Shown in pieces: positions 2,607 through 15,275 of a DNA stretch of 18,269 bases. The notes beneath the pieces were generated by a model. That model made no database searches, had not been told where the DNA came from, and saw only the letters and a program-made list of their open reading frames with translations. The DNA lies in the NCBI GenBank assembly GCA_030526225.1, contig JAUNDF010000043.1, forward strand, positions 1 through 18,269, given 5' to 3'. Source of the DNA: Clostridia bacterium. GTDB lineage: Bacteria; Bacillota; Clostridia; Christensenellales; Aristaeellaceae. Position numbers and translations under genes: made by a program. How positions within the stretch are numbered: position 1 is the first letter of the stretch; every line of letters begins with the position of its first letter.

Positions 2607-3854
2607 TTGATGAAGCAGCTTTTCTCCCGCAAAAACGCCCCCGGCCTTGTGCTGTTCGCAGCGTTTTGGCTGATTTATACCCTTGCCGCCTTCCGGCTGT
2701 TTTATGCCCAGTGCACCGCCGTGCTGGACGGCACCCGCACCGCCGCATACAACTCCGACATGTGGGCCTACATCCCGGAAATGCTGGGGCAGAAGGCCGC
2801 GCCCACGCCCTTCCCCTACCCCATTCTGTTTCTGCTGGGGCGGCTGTTCCATCTGGTGATGGGTCCCGCCGCCGCCATGGCCTGTGCCACCACACTGCTG
2901 GTATCCCTGTCTGTGGCCGCGGTGTTTGCGGGCCTTGCCTGCACCCTGCTGCCCCGGCTGAAGAGCATCCGTGACGGATACGCCCCGGCTATCCTCACCG
3001 CACTGGCCGCCATGGCGGTGTTCCTGTCCGCCATGCTGATGCTCCCCGGAGAGGGTCATCTCCCCGGCCTGAAGTATGATTATGTGGGCGTGGGCACCCC
3101 CAGCCCCTGGCACAACGCCACCTATCTGGCCGCCCGTCCCTTTGCCGTGGCTGCGTTCTTCCTGCTGTGCCGCCTGCTGGAGGTATACGAAACGGAGGGC
3201 TTTGCCAGCCACAAGGGGCTGTACATCGGCTTTGCCGCCGCGCTGGTGCTGACCACCCTGGCCAAGCCCAGCTACACCCTGCTGGTGTGCATCACTGCCG
3301 CCTGCGTGATGCTTTACCGCCTGTTCCGCACCCGCTGGCGCACCTTCGGCAAGGCATTCGCCCTTGGGCTTGCCTTTGTGCCCACCGCCGCGGTGATGCT
3401 GTGGCAGTTCTTCATCCGCTTCACCCCCGGTGCCGAGCCCGGCGGCGGCATCACCTTTGGCTTGGGTGATGCATGGCTGCTGTATGTGGATTCCATCCCG
3501 CTGGCGGTGCTGTACGCCATCGCCTTCCCGCTGGTGACGCTGCTGACCCATCTGCCCCGGCTGAAGACAAACACGCACTTCCGCTTTGCATGGCTGCAGT
3601 ATCTCGTTGCCCTCCTCATGGCCTATTTCCTGAAGGAGGGCGGCTCCGGTCTGCGGGACTTCAATTTCTTCTGGGGCTACATGTGCGGTCTGCTGTTCCT
3701 GTTTGTCGTATCCGCCGAAGCACTGGCGGAGGATATCGCCCGGTGGCCCCAAAGAAAGGCCGCCGTCATCGCCCAGAGCATCATGCTGTTGTGCCACATC
3801 GCCGGCGGCGTGTGCTACTATGTCGCTCTGATGCAGGGGAAGATGTACTTCTGA
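2607..3854 (+). CDS. Polytopic integral membrane protein of unknown function, roughly 10-12 predicted helices
   Basis: 415-aa ORF. AGGAGG at 2594-2599. Start is TTG 2607 or the adjacent ATG 2610. The sequence is strongly hydrophobic throughout. Stop is TGA. I recognise no family. Confidence 0.6.
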   Translation: MMKQLFSRKNAPGLVLFAAFWLIYTLAAFRLFYAQCTAVLDGTRTAAYNSDMWAYIPEMLGQKAAPTPFPYPILFLLGRLFHLVMGPAAAMACATTLLVSLSVAAVFAGLACTLLPRLKSIRDGYAPAILTALAAMAVFLSAMLMLPGEGHLPGLKYDYVGVGTPSPWHNATYLAARPFAVAAFFLLCRLLEVYETEGFASHKGLYIGFAAALVLTTLAKPSYTLLVCITAACVMLYRLFRTRWRTFGKAFALGLAFVPTAAVMLWQFFIRFTPGAEPGGGITFGLGDAWLLYVDSIPLAVLYAIAFPLVTLLTHLPRLKTNTHFRFAWLQYLVALLMAYFLKEGGSGLRDFNFFWGYMCGLLFLFVVSAEALAEDIARWPQRKAAVIAQSIMLLCHIAGGVCYYVALMQGKMYF

Positions 3855-3898: not shown

Positions 3899-5016
3899 GT
3901 GCAATTGCCCGTGACGACCCAGACCAAGCTGCAGCCCGCCCGGAAGCGGGATGCCAACATCGAGCTGATGCGGCTGTTTGCCTGCTTCAGCGTGCTGCTG
4001 ATGCACTGCCCCAACCGGATTCTGGAGGCTGAGGTCCTCGGCTCCTGCGGTGTGGCGCTGTTTTCTCCATCACCGGCTGTTTCTGGTTCCGCAGCCAGAA
4101 AAGCTATCTTTCCGTCATCCGCAGCTTTGCCCTGCACGTGCTGCTGCCGGTGCTGCTGCTGGAGGTGTTCGCCCAGGCCATTGCGCCGTGGTTTACAGCC
4201 CCCGGTCTGTCCCTGTCAGCAGACCAGCTGGTGATGCCTGATTTTGTCGGCATTCTGCGGGGCGTATGGCAGCTGAATTTCCGGGCATGGACCGGGCTTG
4301 GCGGCCACACCTGGTACATCACCGAATTGATGCGGTGCCTGCTGTACTTCATCCCCATGAAGCTGGTGGCCACCCATCCCGACAAAAGGGTCTGCCGGGG
4401 CGTTGCCGCCTTTGTGCTGGTGATGACCTGCATCAGCTCCGTCCGCACCGCTTATCCGGCTACCACGCTGTGCCTGCCCCCTTCCCAGCTGATTTTCCCC
4501 TGCTATTTCGTGATGCTGATGGTGGGGCAGGAAATGTATGCTGCCCGGGAAAGGCTGCGCAGCGGCCGCGTATTCTGCGCGGGTCTTGCCGGCTTTGTGC
4601 TGCTGACAGCGGGAAAATATCTGCTCAACCGCACGGGGCTGCTGGGGTATGATCTGTGCTTTTCCGCAGACAGCCCGTTCACCTTCCTGTCCCTGCCGTT
4701 TCTCTACATGATGTTCCTGCCCATCCGCCTGCCGGAGCGCGCGGCGGATGTCATTCGCCGGCTGGCAAAGAAAACCTTCTATGTCTACCTGCTGCATCCG
4801 CTGATTAACGACAAGCTCCGCGCATTGGGCGTATTCGACCGCACCTTCGCCTTTTTCATCGGCAAAACGCCCATCCTGATGCTGGATTATCTGCTGATGT
4901 GCCTGTGCAACATCCTCATTGACTTTACCATAGCGGTGCTTCTGACCCTGCCCTTCACCGCCCTGCATAAGGCCATCATGCTGCTCCGAAGCCAAAAAAA
5001 GGCGGCAAACCCTTGA
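3899..5016 (+). pseudogene. Acyltransferase family 3 (OafA/YrhL-like O-acyltransferase) membrane protein, disrupted by a 1-nt frameshift
   Basis: The N-terminal piece (3899 or GTG 3911, to about 4064) reads ...RDANIELMRLFACFSVLLMHC...GVALF, typical of acyltransferase_3. The rest continues in another frame (open from 4033, track ORF 4138..5016). Adding one T to the TTTT run at 4061-4064 restores ...GVALFFSITGCFWFRSQKSYLSVIRSFALHVLLPVLL... Confidence 0.7.
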
Positions 5017-8254: not shown

Positions 8255-10078
8255 ATGATTCGCGAAGATATCCGCAACATTGCCATTATTGCCCACGTTG
8301 ACCACGGCAAGACCACCCTGGTGGACCAGATGCTCAAGCAGGGCGGCGTGTACCGTGCCAATCAGCAGACCGTTGACCGCGTAATGGACTCCAACGATCT
8401 GGAGCGCGAGCGCGGCATCACCATCCTGAGCAAGAACACCGCCGTCAGCTATGGCGGCCACAAAATCAACATCGTTGACACCCCCGGCCACGCTGACTTC
8501 GGCGGCGAGGTGGAGCGCGTGCTGAAGATGGTTGACGGCGTGCTGCTGCTGGTGGACAGCTTTGAAGGCCCCATGCCCCAGACCCGCTTCGTGCTGCAGA
8601 AGGCCCTGGCCCTGAAGCTGAAGGTGCTGATTGTCATCAACAAGATTGACCGCCCCGATGCCCGCTGCGAAGAGGTGGTCAACGAAATCATGGACCTGCT
8701 CATCGACCTGGAGGCCGACGAGAGCATCCTGGACAATCCCATCCTGTATGTCAGCGCCCGCAAGGGTACTGCCACCCTGGATCTGGACACCCCCGGTGAA
8801 AACCTGCAGCCCCTGTTCGAGACCATCCTCCAGTGCATCCCCGCCCCCGAAGGCGATCCCGAAGGCCCTGCACAGGTGCTGATTTCCACCATCGACTACA
8901 GCGAGTATGTGGGCCGTATTGGCGTGGGCCGCGTGGTGCGCGGTACCTTCCGCAGCGGCCAGATGGTGGTGCACACCAACATCGAAACCGGTGCTGTCAG
9001 CCAGCCCTGGCGTTTGGCCGGCCTGTTCCAGTATGACGGCCTGAAGCGCAACGCCGCCGAGGAAGTGGGCATGGGTGATATCGTGGCCCTGTGCGGCAAC
9101 GAAAACGTCTCCATCGGCGATACCGTGTGCGACCCCTCCTGCGTGGAGGCGCTGCCCTTTGTGAAAATCAGCGAGCCCACCGTGTCCATGACCTTCCAGG
9201 TCAATGACAGCCCCTTCGCAGGCCGCGAGGGCAGCTTTGTCACCAGCCGTCACCTGCGTGCCCGCCTGATGCGCGAGCTGCAGACCGACGTATCCCTGCG
9301 GGTGAACGACACCGCCACCACCGATGCCTTTGAGGTATGCGGCCGCGGCGAGCTGCACCTGTCCATCCTGATTGAAAACATGCGCCGTCAGGGCTACGAA
9401 TTCGCCGTATCCAAGCCTCAGGTTATTTACAAGGTGATTGACGGCGTAAAGTGCGAGCCCATCGAGCGTCTGGTGGTTGATACGCCCCAGGCCAGCGCCG
9501 GTGCCGTCATCGAAAAGATCGGCCGCCGCCGCGGTACGCTGGAGAGCATGAGCGGTCTGGATCGTGTCCGCATGGAGTTCCTGGTTCCCTCCCGCGGCCT
9601 GTTCGGCTACCGCAGCGAATTTATGACCGACACCCGCGGTGAAGGCATCATGTCCAGCGTGTTCGAGCGCTACGAGCCCGTGAAGGGTGACATCCCCCAC
9701 CGCAATGTGGGCGCTCTGGTTGCCCATGAAAGCGGCGAGTCCACCTCCTACGGCCTGTTCTACGCTCAGGAGCGCGGCACCCTGTTCATCGGCGCACAGC
9801 TGCCCGTGTATGAGGGCATGATTGTGGGCCAGAACGCCCGCCCCGGCGATCTGGTGGTGAATGTGTGCAAGCAGAAGCACGTGACCAACATGCGCAACGC
9901 CTCCGCTTCCGAGGATGCCATGCGCCTGATTTCCGTGCATCCCCTGACGCTGGAGGAATGCATGGAGTTCATCGATGACGATGAGCTGCTGGAAATCACC
10001 CCCAAGACCCTGCGCATGCGCAAAAAGGTTCTCAACGCCGGCGACCGTGCCCGCGCCTGGAGAAACCAGAACAACTGA
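8255..10078 (+). CDS. typA: Translational GTPase TypA/BipA
   Basis: 607 aa from ATG 8255, with AGGAGG at 8239-8244. [46 protein letters not shown]. Length matches BipA. The track ORF start at 8099 reads through the repeat element and is rejected. Stop is TGA. Confidence 0.93.
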
Positions 10079-10094
10079 TAATTGATACAATGTT

Positions 10095-10128
10095 CCCCTG
10101 CCGGAAAGGTTCGGCAGGGGAATTTTTT
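10095..10128 (+). terminator. Rho-independent terminator after typA
   Basis: CCCCTGCCG (10095-10103), 8-nt loop, CGGCAGGGG (10112-10120), then AATTTTTT. Confidence 0.8.
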
Positions 10129-10131
10129 GTA

Positions 10132-10169
10132 TTGTAAAAGGGACTGTGAAAAACGCTTTCACAGCCCCC
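10132..10169 (-). terminator. Rho-independent terminator closing the minus-strand methionine operon
   Basis: Minus strand GGGGCTGTGAAA ... TTTCACAGTCCC (plus 10140-10168, one mismatch), followed by TTTTAC. It lies 12 nt after the TAA of the small ORF. Confidence 0.6.
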
Positions 10170-10180
10170 AAACACATTTC

Positions 10181-10468
10181 TTACTTCTTATACGGTCCGA
10201 ACTTGTCCCAGCCTTCCTTGCTGAGGGTATCCAGGAAGGTGCCGGTGCCGAAAATCATGTTGTCGATGAATTCCTCCACCACGCCTGTGGTCAGGTCGGT
10301 GGTGCCCATCAAATCGCCGTCGCAGGCGAAGGTGTAGTCATCCATCACAAAAGCCTTGGGATAGCGATAGTCCAGATTGAACTTGTTGACGGTGGCCAAA
10401 GCCTTGTTGTAATCAGAGGCCTTGATGGCAAAGCTGTCGGCGGTGAAGCAGAAACGGTCGTTCGTCAA
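10181..10468 (-). CDS. Small hypothetical protein (up to 95 aa), last ORF of the methionine operon
   Basis: Strong host-like C/G-ending codon usage across the ORF. The only start at the 5' end is TTG 10468, immediately preceded by an in-frame TGA. It overlaps the tail of the upstream gene by 56 nt. No family recognised. Confidence 0.35.
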   Translation of the reverse strand: MTNDRFCFTADSFAIKASDYNKALATVNKFNLDYRYPKAFVMDDYTFACDGDLMGTTDLTTGVVEEFIDNMIFGTGTFLDTLSKEGWDKFGPYKK

Positions 10469-11309
10469 TCATTCTGCGCCGCGATTGTATCCGCAAGACC
10501 TTCTGCGCGAAGGCCTCGGCGATTCTTTCCATCAGCCCCATGCGGCGGAAGGGCACGGTGACATAAAAGCCGTCGGCATAGGGCGCGGCCTGACGGGCAA
10601 GGTCCAGCGTGACGGACAAGGCAATCTCCTCGGCCTCTTCCCGGGATTTATCACGATAGCGCAGGGCGATGTCTTCATCGATGCGCATGCCGCTGACCTC
10701 GTTTTGCAAAAAGCAGGCATTGCGGTAGCTGACGATGGGATAAAGCCCCGCCAGAATGAAGCTGCCCTGCAGCTCCTCCCGGGCTTTGCGCAGGTTTTCC
10801 ATCGCCTTTGCGGACAGCACCGGCTGGGTCAGGAAGCCTTCCACACCGGCGGCCACCTTTTCCCTGGCCAGACGAAGCTGCACATCAAAATTGACCGCGT
10901 TCACATTCAGCGCGCCGAACAGATGCATGGGCTGCTTCAGTGCCGTACCCTGCAGGCTTGTGACATAGGCGGCCAGCTTGCGGCTGTTGAAGTTGAACAC
11001 GCTCTTCACGCTGTCCCGGTCTTCGCCGGGGATGGGGTCGCCGGTGACCAGCAGTACATTGTCCACGCCCTCCATGGAAAGGCCCAGCAGCAGTGCCTTG
11101 GTGGCGTTGAGGTTGCGGTCGCGGCAGGTGAGATGCGGCAGAACATTCACCTTCAGCTCCCGGTGCAGCTTGCAGGCCAGCAGGCTGCTGTCTGCGCGGG
11201 GGCGGCCGATGGGGCAATCGGCGATGGTGATGGCATCCACGCCCATGTCCTTCAGCCGCCGGGCATCGGCAAGGAAGTTCTCCGCGCTGTCATCCGCAGG
11301 GGGATCCAG
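10413..11309 (-). CDS. yitJ: Methylenetetrahydrofolate reductase (MTHFR) domain: C-terminal part of a YitJ-like bifunctional gene, downstream of in-frame TAG 11310-11312
   Basis: Same frame as ORF 11310..12269. Reads (TAG)LDPPADDSAENFLADARRLKDMGVDAITIADCP...LPHLTCRDRN...LLVTGDP..., which aligns with E. coli MetF SFEFFPP...HLTCID. The track ORF begins at internal ATG 11246. Stop is TGA. Confidence 0.8.
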   Translation of the reverse strand: MDPPADDSAENFLADARRLKDMGVDAITIADCPIGRPRADSSLLACKLHRELKVNVLPHLTCRDRNLNATKALLLGLSMEGVDNVLLVTGDPIPGEDRDSVKSVFNFNSRKLAAYVTSLQGTALKQPMHLFGALNVNAVNFDVQLRLAREKVAAGVEGFLTQPVLSAKAMENLRKAREELQGSFILAGLYPIVSYRNACFLQNEVSGMRIDEDIALRYRDKSREEAEEIALSVTLDLARQAAPYADGFYVTVPFRRMGLMERIAEAFAQKVLRIQSRRRMIDERPFLLHRRQLCHQGL

Positions 11310-12269
11310 CTATACGGCAATCACCCGCCGCCCCTGCTTCAATCGGGTCAGCAGGCTGTCACCGGTGCGCTCCCTTGCGGCGGCAGATGCCTTTTGCGCA
11401 GCGGCATGGGGAATGTACTGCACATGGTTTTTCGCAATCAGCGCCCCTGCGGCTCGGATGTGCTCCGGCGTGGTGCCGCAGCAGCCGCCCACAATGGCGG
11501 CACCCGCCCCAGCCAGCTGACCCAGCAGATCGGCAAAGTAATCCGGCGTACCCTGAAACACGGCTCTGCGGCCGATGACCGCAGGATAGCCGGCATTGGG
11601 CATCACGGACAGGGGCTTGCCCAAATCGGGCAGCTGCTGCACCAGCTTCAGCATATGACCGGGGCCGGAAACGCAGTTCATGCCCACAGCATCCACCTGA
11701 GGCATGGCGGCTGTATCCCGAAGAAGTCTTACACCGGATTCGCCGCCGCGGGTGACACCCGCGGGGTCCACGGCGTAGGAGACAATCAGGTATGCTTCGG
11801 GGCAGCGCGCCTTCAGCCATGCGGCGGCTTCGGCAACACCATGGCTTGCGGGCAGTGTTTCCATCAAAAAGCAGGTGATGCCCTCGGACAGGAAGGTCTC
11901 CATCTGGCGGATGTAAAGCAGGGCGCTGTCCTTTGCGCCGCAGTCATCCGGTGCTGGACCGATATCGCCGAAGAGGTACGCCTTGCCCTCCGCCGCCTCC
12001 TTGATGAGACCGCAGGCGGCACGGAGCAGCACATCCGCTTCCATGCCCCGGGCCAGCATGCCCGACAGACCGAAGGTGTTGGTCTTCAGGCACTGGGCTC
12101 CGGCAGTCAGATAATCCCGATGAATGGCCAGAATGGTCTCCGGCTCCTGCAGGCAGGCCTGCTCACAGCTTTGCTCCCCCAGCCGGCTGCGCTGGGCATA
12201 CAAGGTGCCCATGCCGCCGTCAAACAGCAGGGGCGCAGGCTGCTTCATTCTGTCGCGAAGGTTCATCAT
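11310..12269 (-). CDS. yitJ: Homocysteine S-methyltransferase domain: N-terminal part of the YitJ-like bifunctional gene, ending at in-frame TAG
   Basis: 319 aa: LLFDGGMGT, KTNTFG, GMNCVSGP, VGGCCGTTPEHI (Zn/Hcy site). AGGAGG lies 8 nt upstream. ATGA overlap with the metH stop. It terminates at TAG 11310-11312, within the first MTHFR motif. Confidence 0.8.
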   Translation of the reverse strand: MMNLRDRMKQPAPLLFDGGMGTLYAQRSRLGEQSCEQACLQEPETILAIHRDYLTAGAQCLKTNTFGLSGMLARGMEADVLLRAACGLIKEAAEGKAYLFGDIGPAPDDCGAKDSALLYIRQMETFLSEGITCFLMETLPASHGVAEAAAWLKARCPEAYLIVSYAVDPAGVTRGGESGVRLLRDTAAMPQVDAVGMNCVSGPGHMLKLVQQLPDLGKPLSVMPNAGYPAVIGRRAVFQGTPDYFADLLGQLAGAGAAIVGGCCGTTPEHIRAAGALIAKNHVQYIPHAAAQKASAAARERTGDSLLTRLKQGRRVIAV

Positions 12270-14299
12270 CCCAGCACCCTCCTGGCAATCTCCACCGCCT
12301 GACGGGCATCCCTGGCGTAATCATCTGCGCCCATCTTTTCGGCCCAGTCGGCGGTCACCACGGCACCGCCCACAAACACCCGGGGCGGATGGGGCAGCTG
12401 CTTGAGTCGGCGCACCGTCTCCTCCATGGCGGGGAGGGTGGTGGTCATCAGCGCGGAAAGCCCCACCAGCGCCAGGTTTTCCTTTTCGGCGCAGTCGCAG
12501 ATGATTTCCGGCGCCACATCCTTGCCAAGGTCGATGACCTCATAGCCGTAATTCTCCAGCACCGTGCGGACGATGTTTTTGCCGATGTCGTGGATATCGC
12601 CCTGCACGGTGGCAATGGCCAGCCGACCCTTGCGGATGCGCTCACCGCCGTTTTTCGCCAGCGAATCCTTGATGACCCCGAACACGCCCTCTGCCGCCTG
12701 GGCAGCACCCAGCAGCTGGGGCAGGAAGGCGCGGCCGGCCTCATAATCCTGACCCACCTTATCCAGCGCGGGAATCAGCTGATCCTCCACCAGCGCCAGC
12801 TCCTGTCCCGGCACCAGCGCGGCCTTGGCGGCCCTGACCGCCTCGGCACAAAGCCCGCGGGAGACGGCCTCCTGCAGGCCCATGGCGGATGATGCGCCGG
12901 GCTTTAAGGGGGCGGCAGGCTGTGCATCGGCAAAGCGGGCGATGTAGTCGCGGCTGCCCTCATCCTCGCCGGAAAGCACCCGGAAGGCCGCCACCGCATC
13001 CATCATTTCCTTTTGATTGGGGTTGATGATGGGCAGATTCAGCCCCTTGTCCATGGCCCGGACAAGGAAGGTCTGGGTCATCAGCGGGCGCATGGGCAGG
13101 CCGAAGGAAATGTTGCTGACCCCCAGCACCGTGCTCAGGCCCAGCTCATCGTGCACCAGCTGCACGGCGCGAAGGGTCTCCTCGGCCTGCTGCTGCTGGG
13201 CGGATACGGTGAGGGTCAGGCAGTCAATCCACACATCGGCCCTGCGGATGCCCTGTGCCAGCGCCGCATCCAGTATCCGGCGGGCGATGGCCAGCCGCTG
13301 CTGTGCCGTATCGGGGATGCCGTTTTCATCCAGCGTCAAGCCCACCACGGCGGCGCCATATTTCTTCACCGACGGCAGAATGGCACGAAGCACCTCCTCC
13401 TTGCCGTTGACGGAGTTCACCGCGGCCTTGCCGTTGTACACCCGAAGCCCTGCGGCCAGCGCCTCGGGGTTGGAGGAATCCAGCTGAAGGGGCAGCGGCA
13501 CCGCGGCCTGCAGTGCCTTCACCACACGGGGCAGCATGGCGACCTCGTCCACGCCGGGGTAGCCCACGTTCACATCCAGAATGTCGGCCCCGGCATCCAT
13601 TTCCTGCACGGCCACATCCACAATGTAGTCCAGATCGTTTTCCAGCAATGCCTGCTGGAAGCGCTTTTTGCCCGTGGGGTTGATGCGCTCGCCAATGACC
13701 CGCACACCGTCTGTATGCACGGTGCGGGTGGGGGTGCAGACACAGCCGTCCCCGGCTCTTTCACCGTGGGGGACAACCGCCGCGTCCTTAGCCATTTCTG
13801 CCAGCGCACGGATGTAATCGGGCTTGGTGCCGCAGCAGCCGCCGATGATGGCCGCGCCGTTTTCAAGGCACAGCCGCATATCCTGCGCAAATTCCTCGGG
13901 AGATACATCATACGCGCCGGTCACCGGATCGGGCAGACCTGCGTTGGGCTTAACGATGACAGGCAGCGCGGTGCAGGCGGCAATCTCCTTCACCAGCGGC
14001 GCCAGCTGACGGGGACCCAGAGAGCAGTTGAGGCCCACCGCATCCACGCCCAGACCCTCCAGCGTGCGCACGGCGGCCTCTGCGGTGCAGCCGGTAAAGG
14101 TGCGGCCATCCGCCTCAAAGGACATGGTGGCGAACACGGGCAGACTGGTGTTCTCTTTGGCGGCCAGCACGGCAGCCTTGGCCTCATAAAGGTCGGTCAT
14201 GGTTTCCACCACAATCAGGTCGGCACCGGCCTTGTCACCGGCAATCACCATCTCCCGGAACAGCTCATAGGCCTGCTCGAAGGTCAACGTGCCCATGGG
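12266..14299 (-). CDS. metH: Cobalamin-dependent methionine synthase (rest of Hcy-binding, pterin-binding and B12-binding modules; no C-terminal AdoMet activation module): part downstream of in-frame TAG 14300-14302
   Basis: GLNCSLGP, IGGCCGTKPDYI, VIGERINPTGKK, LDVNVG, GVSNISFGLP, and the B12 motifs GDIHDIGKN / GLSALMTTT / VGGA. It is in frame with ORF 14300..14635. Stop is TGA. Confidence 0.9.
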   Translation of the reverse strand, partial: PMGTLTFEQAYELFREMVIAGDKAGADLIVVETMTDLYEAKAAVLAAKENTSLPVFATMSFEADGRTFTGCTAEAAVRTLEGLGVDAVGLNCSLGPRQLAPLVKEIAACTALPVIVKPNAGLPDPVTGAYDVSPEEFAQDMRLCLENGAAIIGGCCGTKPDYIRALAEMAKDAAVVPHGERAGDGCVCTPTRTVHTDGVRVIGERINPTGKKRFQQALLENDLDYIVDVAVQEMDAGADILDVNVGYPGVDEVAMLPRVVKALQAAVPLPLQLDSSNPEALAAGLRVYNGKAAVNSVNGKEEVLRAILPSVKKYGAAVVGLTLDENGIPDTAQQRLAIARRILDAALAQGIRRADVWIDCLTLTVSAQQQQAEETLRAVQLVHDELGLSTVLGVSNISFGLPMRPLMTQTFLVRAMDKGLNLPIINPNQKEMMDAVAAFRVLSGEDEGSRDYIARFADAQPAAPLKPGASSAMGLQEAVSRGLCAEAVRAAKAALVPGQELALVEDQLIPALDKVGQDYEAGRAFLPQLLGAAQAAEGVFGVIKDSLAKNGGERIRKGRLAIATVQGDIHDIGKNIVRTVLENYGYEVIDLGKDVAPEIICDCAEKENLALVGLSALMTTTLPAMEETVRRLKQLPHPPRVFVGGAVVTADWAEKMGADDYARDARQAVEIARRVLG

Positions 14300-14635
14300 C
14301 TAAAGCAGCTCGCCGATGGGGCCCACATCCAGTGCGATGGCCATGTCGGTCCGTCCGGCCTCCTGCGCCGCCTGTCTTGCCAGCGCAACGCCCGCCAGAA
14401 TCACCTCCTGCACGGTGTGGCCGCTGCCCTGCAGCTTGTGTCCGTTTGCCCCGAAGGTATTGGCGTACAGCACCTGACTGCCGGCCTCGGCATACTGGCG
14501 CTGAATATCGCGGATGATGTCACCGCTGGTGATATTCATCAGCTCCGGCAGGTCGCCCAGCTTCATGCCGGCGGCCATGAGCATGGTGCCCATGCCGCCA
14601 TCCAGCAGCAGGGGTTTATTTTGATTCCATTCCAC
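14300..14635 (-). CDS. metH: N-terminal 111 codons of the same methionine synthase (start of Hcy-binding module), ending at in-frame TAG
   Basis: GTG start 14635, 8 nt after AGGAGG. PLLLDGGMGTML, YANTFGAN, ...DVGPIGELL, then TAG, then PMGTLTFEQAYELF in the same frame. Confidence 0.85.
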   Translation of the reverse strand: MEWNQNKPLLLDGGMGTMLMAAGMKLGDLPELMNITSGDIIRDIQRQYAEAGSQVLYANTFGANGHKLQGSGHTVQEVILAGVALARQAAQEAGRTDMAIALDVGPIGELL

Positions 14636-15275
14636 AGGTTCGTCCTCCTTTGCGGATGGTGCAGTGTTCTTTCATTTCACAATACGCGCAGCCGCGGATT
14701 CTTGCCCGCTGGGGCGCATCAGACAGTCCGATAAAGGCCGTGACCGATTTTTGCGGATTCATCAGCCCCGACGGCGTCAGATGGATGCCCGTTTTCCGCT
14801 GTGCATCCAGCAGGTGGATGATGGGGAACTGCAGCTGCAATGGCAAATCCCCGTAGCCGGGGCTGAAGCGGTCCGTGCCGTGGGAATACGGCACCGCCTG
14901 CAGGATTTCCTGCTGAAGAGCATCGCAGACCTCCTCAATCAAGGCACTGCCGCAGCAGTCCATCAGCAGTGCATCCGCCATGCTCCGGGCCTGCACCGTG
15001 CGCACCAGCCGGTCGAAATCCGCCCCAAGGGTACAGGCAAAGACCGCCACCGCCTGACAATCCTTCAGCATCAGCCGGGCAGATGCGCCCTCAAGCAGCA
15101 ATTCACCCGCCTGCTCGCCCGCATCGGTATGATTCAGGGGCAGCATGCGCCACACGGATTTGGGGTGCAGCGATCTGCGGAGCAGCATCAGCGTTTCCCG
15201 GGCGCGGGTCAGGGTGGCTTCATCCTATGGCGGACAGCCCATGTAGCGCAGTGCCTCGTATGCGGTATCTGCCAC
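14616..15275 (-). CDS. Stand-alone vitamin-B12-dependent methionine synthase activation-domain protein (Met_synt_B12), with in-frame TAG at codon 17
   Basis: Probable start is GTG 15275, preceded by GGAAGGGGG. It reads MADTAYEALRYMGCPP-TAG-DEATLTRARETLMLLRR... The (E)ALRY(L/M)G N-terminus and RFSPGYGDLPL are typical of this family. The track ORF 14616..15188 starts at the next ATG, which has no SD. Stop is TAA. It overlaps the metH start by 20 nt. Confidence 0.7.

Follow-up and report, generated by a model that had tools for sequence, protein, structure and literature searches.

The window analysed here, an 18,269-nt stretch of DNA from a Clostridia bacterium (GenBank assembly GCA_030526225.1, contig JAUNDF010000043.1), carries genes for an aminotransferase, a DUF975 protein, a membrane ORF, an acyltransferase (Acyl_transf_3), a DUF4364 protein, prfC, bipA, a 95-aa ORF, yitJ, metH, an activation-domain gene, trkA and trkH. 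A 415-aa hydrophobic ORF on the plus strand (window 2607-3854) has a coding-type GC3 of 0.82 and no Pfam match. The G+C fraction is 0.64-0.65 in the methionine operon (window 11001-14000) and 0.58-0.62 in the prfC-bipA region, against 0.51-0.55 in the closest bipA relatives.

The activation-domain gene (act), metH and yitJ form a methionine operon on the minus strand. Its features, and those of the adjoining remnant gene, are as follows.

14616..15188, minus strand: methionine-synthase activation-domain-like gene, intact, gene 1 of the operon (PF02965 match)
12266..14635, minus strand: metH, with Hcy-binding, pterin-binding and B12-binding domains, intact apart from a TAG (Pfam; read-through translation)
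14300..14302, minus strand: second in-frame TAG, in metH (GPIGELL*PMG; read-through translation, orthologue alignment)
11313..12269, minus strand: 5' part of yitJ, encoding a complete Hcy S-methyltransferase domain, a linker and MTHFR strand beta-1 (PF02574, 170 bits, residues 14-274)
11310..11312, minus strand: in-frame amber codon at the MTHFR catalytic Glu column (sequence, translation and alignments; identical in Logan contig L001)
10413..11309, minus strand: 3' part of yitJ, encoding the remainder of the MTHFR domain in frame with the 5' part and ending in TGA (PF02219, 72.6 bits, profile 21-257)
10416..10499, minus strand: aberrant 28-residue C-terminal tail of YitJ with no orthologue counterpart (alignment columns 601-628, frame analysis)
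10181..10468, minus strand: 95-aa remnant of a gene whose homologues have 171-177 aa, the N-terminal ~80 residues being absent (homologues match via residues 82-177 only)

An amber codon at the catalytic glutamate column of YitJ

Plus-strand positions 11310-11312 read CTA; on the minus strand this is a TAG, and it closes an ORF of 319 aa (11310-12269) that starts with ATG. Past this stop, another 298 codons follow in the same frame before a TGA at 10413-10415, with the translation ...GRRVIAV*LDPPADDS..., and the TAG is codon 320 of the resulting fusion. An N-terminal PF02574 domain and a C-terminal PF02219 domain in one frame give the window gene the likeness of a YitJ-type HcyMT-MTHFR fusion, the name that NCBI gives to the database proteins P0003 and P0094. 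B. subtilis YitJ is the prototype of this bifunctional Hcy S-methyltransferase/MTHFR. The PF02574 match covers profile positions 1-279 of 283, all upstream of the TAG, and so agrees with the preliminary description, which had stated that termination here leaves a whole Hcy-methyltransferase domain and no reductase. The same description had placed the codon at the junction of the two domains. This is imprecise: the TAG itself lies ~45 codons past the methyltransferase match, inside the MTHFR domain, ~20 positions from the start of its profile and beyond strand beta-1.

The fusion is otherwise well preserved. Both Cys motifs, NCVSGP and GGCCGT, are kept, with C199, C263 and C264 in invariant columns, and 207 of 221 orthologue-invariant columns (93.7%) are retained across the whole fusion, the departures being mostly conservative. 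The best 120 database hits to YitJ (55-59% identity) are all uninterrupted fusions of 581-603 aa, a pattern that the window copy breaks at the TAG; split genes with a natural stop at this point, which the orthologues might have revealed, are not the norm. Fusions of this length from Gemmiger and Ruminococcaceae MAGs are 58-59% identical to the window YitJ. The window copy differs from these fusions in the TAG that stands for the invariant Glu codon and in its aberrant 28-aa tail. For the methyltransferase half, a 5.8-billion-protein collection contains no relative above ~58-59% identity. A scan of GTDB genome contigs with patterns from the YitJ alignment, which proved too general, gave 50% identity as the best among the matches listed.

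Glu occupies the TAG column in all 12 aligned orthologues (IAVELDPP) and in 118 of the best 120 database hits, the other two having Gly and Val. In human and Thermus MTHFR its counterpart is the Glu of FSLEFFPP and of FSFEFFPP, respectively, and in E. coli MetF, for which the aligned sequence was identical to PDB 1ZP3, it is Glu28. Together these alignments confirm the assignment to the Glu28 column that had been made from the window alone. The codon at this column in 82 loci is GAG in 48, GAA in 29, CAG in four and TAG in one, the last being the Logan copy of the window. As GAG is the commonest of these, a single G-to-T change is enough to produce the TAG, as had been proposed.

The general-acid Glu of MTHFR (E. 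coli Glu28) is therefore absent from the window yitJ, where its codon is TAG. PMC11094777, in the passage that cites Trimmer et al. 2001, gives Glu28 as the proposed general acid of E. coli MetF and puts the activity of the E28Q variant at no more than 0.01% of wild type. This figure, as quoted there, upholds the earlier statement that an active enzyme would need Glu at the TAG site. E28Q and the window copy are alike in that the same column is affected, and the loss of Glu abolishes catalysis in the variant as that passage presents it; they differ in that the window codon is a stop, so that the entire downstream barrel is lost.

The two exceptions among the best 120 orthologues are P0067 (Gly) and P0119 (Val); P0067 has several X-to-Gly changes close to the catalytic column and looks error-ridden. 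Gln (CAG, SVQLDPP) occurs naturally at the column in four distant YitJ-type fusions, L029, L037, L056 (Gaiellaceae) and L081 (Thermoanaerobaculia), and these raise the question of reductase activity, given the near-inactive E28Q variant of E. coli MetF.

The stop could in principle be a selected functional split or a site of regulated read-through, so that the cell would make mostly a stand-alone Hcy methyltransferase and the fusion occasionally. Such a role would suit an upstream product with a complete PF02574 domain and a TAG followed by C, a weak-termination or leaky context. It would also suit the Gln found at the catalytic column in four distant lineages, Gln being the usual near-cognate insertion at UAG. 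Yet none of the best 120 orthologues is split at this site, and the E28Q enzyme of E. coli is essentially inactive, as cited in PMC11094777. The next in-frame ATG (11244-11246) follows 63 nt after the TAG, and the Shine-Dalgarno-like AAGGA stands only 1-2 nt before it. A further stop in metH, inside the Hcy-binding barrel, has no split rationale at all. We regard a functional split as extremely improbable.

A second amber codon in metH

The genes of the operon are tightly packed. The activation-domain gene overlaps the start of metH, and the yitJ ATG overlaps the metH stop (ATGA), so that metH is translationally coupled upstream of yitJ. The order act-metH-yitJ is also found in L003 and L004, where near full-length activation-domain homologues lie directly upstream of metH. 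Rfam models matched no riboswitch and no RNA of another kind ahead of the operon. In the closest bipA relatives (86-89% protein identity) bipA is followed by cinA and not by the methionine operon, which may have been acquired or relocated.

The TAG in metH falls inside the Hcy-binding barrel. The metH products of the three closest orthologues (L003, L041 and L004; 50-57% identity) have Glu at this column, whereas more distant orthologues have Tyr, Gln, Ser, Val or Ala, with Tyr in T. maritima MetH; the column is not universally conserved. Because an ATG follows two codons after this TAG, gene callers split metH into products of 111 and 676 aa.

Further lesions in the window

The 95-aa ORF next to yitJ has a weak YbjN match (profile 54-114). 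Its homologues begin with a hydrophobic, signal-peptide-like N-terminus, and the N-terminal half of the family is found nowhere in the window. The aberrant tail of YitJ overlaps this remnant by 56 nt. The remnant and the overlapping tail together suggest a deletion scar beside yitJ, as judged from frame and alignment.

A lesion of another kind affects the unrelated Acyl_transf_3 gene (window 3899-5016, plus strand), in which a -1 frameshift of 1 nt lies at the T run 4057-4063 (CTGTTTTCTCC). With this frameshift repaired, the PF01757 match, at first limited to profile 112-289 (26 bits), extends over profile 2-289 (54 bits).

Agreement between assemblies

The yitJ TAG recurs in a second assembly. 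Over its 3683 bp, Logan contig L001 (run SRR24915835) matches window 9877-13559 at 100% identity; the TAG lies in mid-contig, and the junction of yitJ and the remnant is identical there as well. The 319-aa product is also present in NCBI, on an 18,361-bp contig. Two assemblers thus agree on the yitJ TAG, possibly from the same reads. Beyond TAGC, the surroundings of the two TAGs share no motif that points to systematic base-calling error, and GAGC is unchanged nearby.

These data bear on whether the base is real. An error at the template level or in sequencing would mean that the real codon is GAG and the fusion intact; we include here a G-to-T change through oxidative damage or through single-cell or low-input amplification, and a minority variant taken as consensus. 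In favour of an error, both stops show one kind of change, G-to-T at a codon of GAG type, in genes that are otherwise intact, and the frameshift in a homopolymer at another place in the window could be a sign of imperfect sequence. Public assemblies, too, show aberrant residues at the catalytic column, namely the Gly of P0067 and the Val of P0119, as well as the stops in the error-rich contig ends of L082 and L088 described below. However, a different assembler recovers the same TAG from SRR24915835, albeit from reads that may be shared, and the truncated neighbour gene is a structural lesion common to both assemblies. By a rough estimate, no more than a few percent of G-to-T errors at random sites would make stops, so that two stops imply many more errors, and these are not suggested by the high conservation of YitJ. 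Taken together, we judge an error to be unlikely.

Standard code or recoding

An in-frame TAG at a conserved Glu column also invites a reading in which the codon is translated as Glu, either by an amber-suppressor tRNA-Glu(CUA) or through partial or complete reassignment, with YitJ and MetH both full-length and active. Both in-frame TAGs occur at columns where orthologues have Glu, one of them the catalytic Glu, and the rest of both genes is conserved. C follows both TAGs, and TAG ends none of the 13 normal genes of the window. This last count says little, since TAG is rare as a stop in the relatives: it makes up 6 of 80 gene-end stops in their loci, and 0 of 13 then has P ~0.36 under the standard code. 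We therefore set aside TAG avoidance at gene ends as uninformative.

Several further observations argue against translation of the codon. Only two in-frame TAGs occur in ~5460 codons of this 18-kb sample, both in metH and yitJ, and none in prfC, bipA, trkA, trkH or the aminotransferase gene. Both thus sit in one presumably dispensable operon; yitJ and metH hold 27% of the Glu codons of the window, and the chance that both TAGs would fall there is ~7%. The truncation and the frameshift beside and near these genes are not predicted by a recoding model, and the closest bipA relatives (86-89% protein identity) end genes in TAG. The 18 kb of the window contain no tRNA, no pyl genes and no MttB-type genes, and they do not extend to prfA (RF1). 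JGI metagenome contigs, scanned with the pattern [V/I]-x-A-V-TAG-L-D-P-P-x-x-D, gave three chance matches and no YitJ gene. A 2026 genome-wide screen lists no bacterial TAG reassignment among known cases and largely puts stop-to-sense calls down to contamination (10.64898/2026.04.02.715157).

Known amber recoding systems offer a partial likeness. Pyrrolysine systems, the TAG-to-Gln codes of phages and the UAR-to-Glu codes of peritrich ciliates and Blastocrithidia all have an in-frame TAG where an amino acid is expected; at both TAG sites of the window the residue expected is Glu. The pyrrolysine system (pylTSBCD) differs in that the affected columns here are Glu sites and not Pyl sites. From amber recoding systems in general, the window differs in having no pyl gene or tRNA, in having only two TAGs in one operon, in the TAG stops of its relatives and in the accompanying lesions.

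That TAG is decoded, as the preliminary description had considered, is not supported: the metH TAG, the truncated neighbour, the YitJ tail, the acyltransferase frameshift, the window without tRNA and the TAG stops in the nearest relatives, taken together, suit decay of the genes better than recoding. We hold translation as Glu to be very unlikely. Its more specific form, that the lineage carries an amber-suppressing tRNA-Glu(CUA) in an incipient TAG-to-Glu reassignment, with both TAGs read as Glu and both enzymes active, appears highly improbable. Bacterial TAG-to-Glu codes are not known, and this one, if true, would be the first. The finding would gain much in importance only if the complete genome revealed that TAG is read as Glu, which is unlikely on present evidence.

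Probable decay of the methionine operon

The TAG is probably a real nonsense mutation, a recent change of GAG to TAG, in an operon for methionine synthesis that this uncultured Clostridia bacterium is losing. Translation would end at the yitJ TAG and give a 319-aa methyltransferase-only product, and the reductase would not be made. A restart at the ATG 21 codons downstream would yield a product that is without strand beta-1 and the general-acid Glu and is predicted to be inactive. The yitJ TAG would then be one of several lesions in act-metH-yitJ, together with the GAG-type-to-TAG nonsense codon of metH and the deletion scar at the 3' end of yitJ. As several lesions lie in this operon, cobalamin-dependent methionine synthesis appears to have been recently inactivated and to be decaying, and methionine is presumably available from the environment. 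Once a nonsense codon arises in one gene of a pathway, lesions in its partner genes become neutral, so stops would be expected to cluster in one operon.

The window shows a pseudogene pattern, with a premature TAG where orthologues are intact and further independent lesions in linked genes. It resembles the biosynthetic-pathway pseudogenes of host-associated bacteria that evolve auxotrophy, in which independent lesions cluster in linked, dispensable and otherwise well-preserved genes; for the window organism, we infer that methionine synthesis is dispensable. The retention of 93.7% of invariant columns would fit only a very recent inactivation.

On this reading, it is a coincidence that the stop lies on the catalytic codon. 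yitJ has 21 codons of GAG type, of which this is one, and the reductase would equally be lost through a stop at nearly any codon before or near it. Among the one-step nonsense routes in yitJ and metH, GAG-to-TAG is the most frequent (17%), and 62% of these routes lead to TAG; with all of them weighted equally, the chance that both stops are TAG at Glu columns is ~3%. This low chance counts against decay of the operon, as do genes that otherwise look fully functional, the 0 of 13 gene ends with TAG and the C after both TAGs. The likelihoods of the sequence are roughly even between decay and recoding, and the prior strongly favours ordinary inactivation. Inactivation is here read from 18 kb of genome, for which there is no close operon-bearing relative for comparison.

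If the operon is indeed decaying, it is another case of a biosynthetic gene inactivated in a genome from a metagenome. The practical value of the finding then lies in annotation, where the products of 319 and 277 aa should be marked as two pieces of a single disrupted yitJ. The organism would also be predicted to lack methionine synthesis by way of MetH.

Apparent second cases in public assemblies

The yitJ TAG was not found in any diverged relative, given that none above 59% identity exists, that the JGI scan gave no YitJ gene and that the one apparent case, L082, is an error. This contig, whose protein P0159 is 48% identical to the methyltransferase half of the window gene, has a TAG at the same column and another ten codons later. 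It was found by picking proteins that end near the TAG position and is thus a biased find. We rejected it because its 98%-identical twin, L088, has GAG at the column. L088 also has TCG at the second TAG of L082, and a TAG of its own where L082 has TAT. Of 44 mismatches between the two, 17 are crowded into the ends of both contigs, within the final ~160 nt. The matching stretches (L082 2750-2923 and L088 2070-2232) come from different ENA assemblies, and both contigs end inside yitJ with ~10% mismatch over the last 160 nt and three different spurious TAGs. The TAGs of L082 and L088 are contig-end errors.

Five short hits that appear to consist of the Hcy methyltransferase only (P0141, P0149, P0157, P0170 and P0208) were likewise rejected, as they end in out-of-frame sequence. 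P0141 and P0149 stand in long-read assemblies in which other genes are split too, and do not represent stops at the catalytic column. In L083 (ERZ1761042 contig_669) and L084 (ERZ27273242 contig_1405_polypolish), both from long-read assemblies, frameshifts split yitJ along with other genes (hflX, S1, lytB). Database proteins of this methyltransferase-only kind from frameshift-split long-read assemblies are artefacts.
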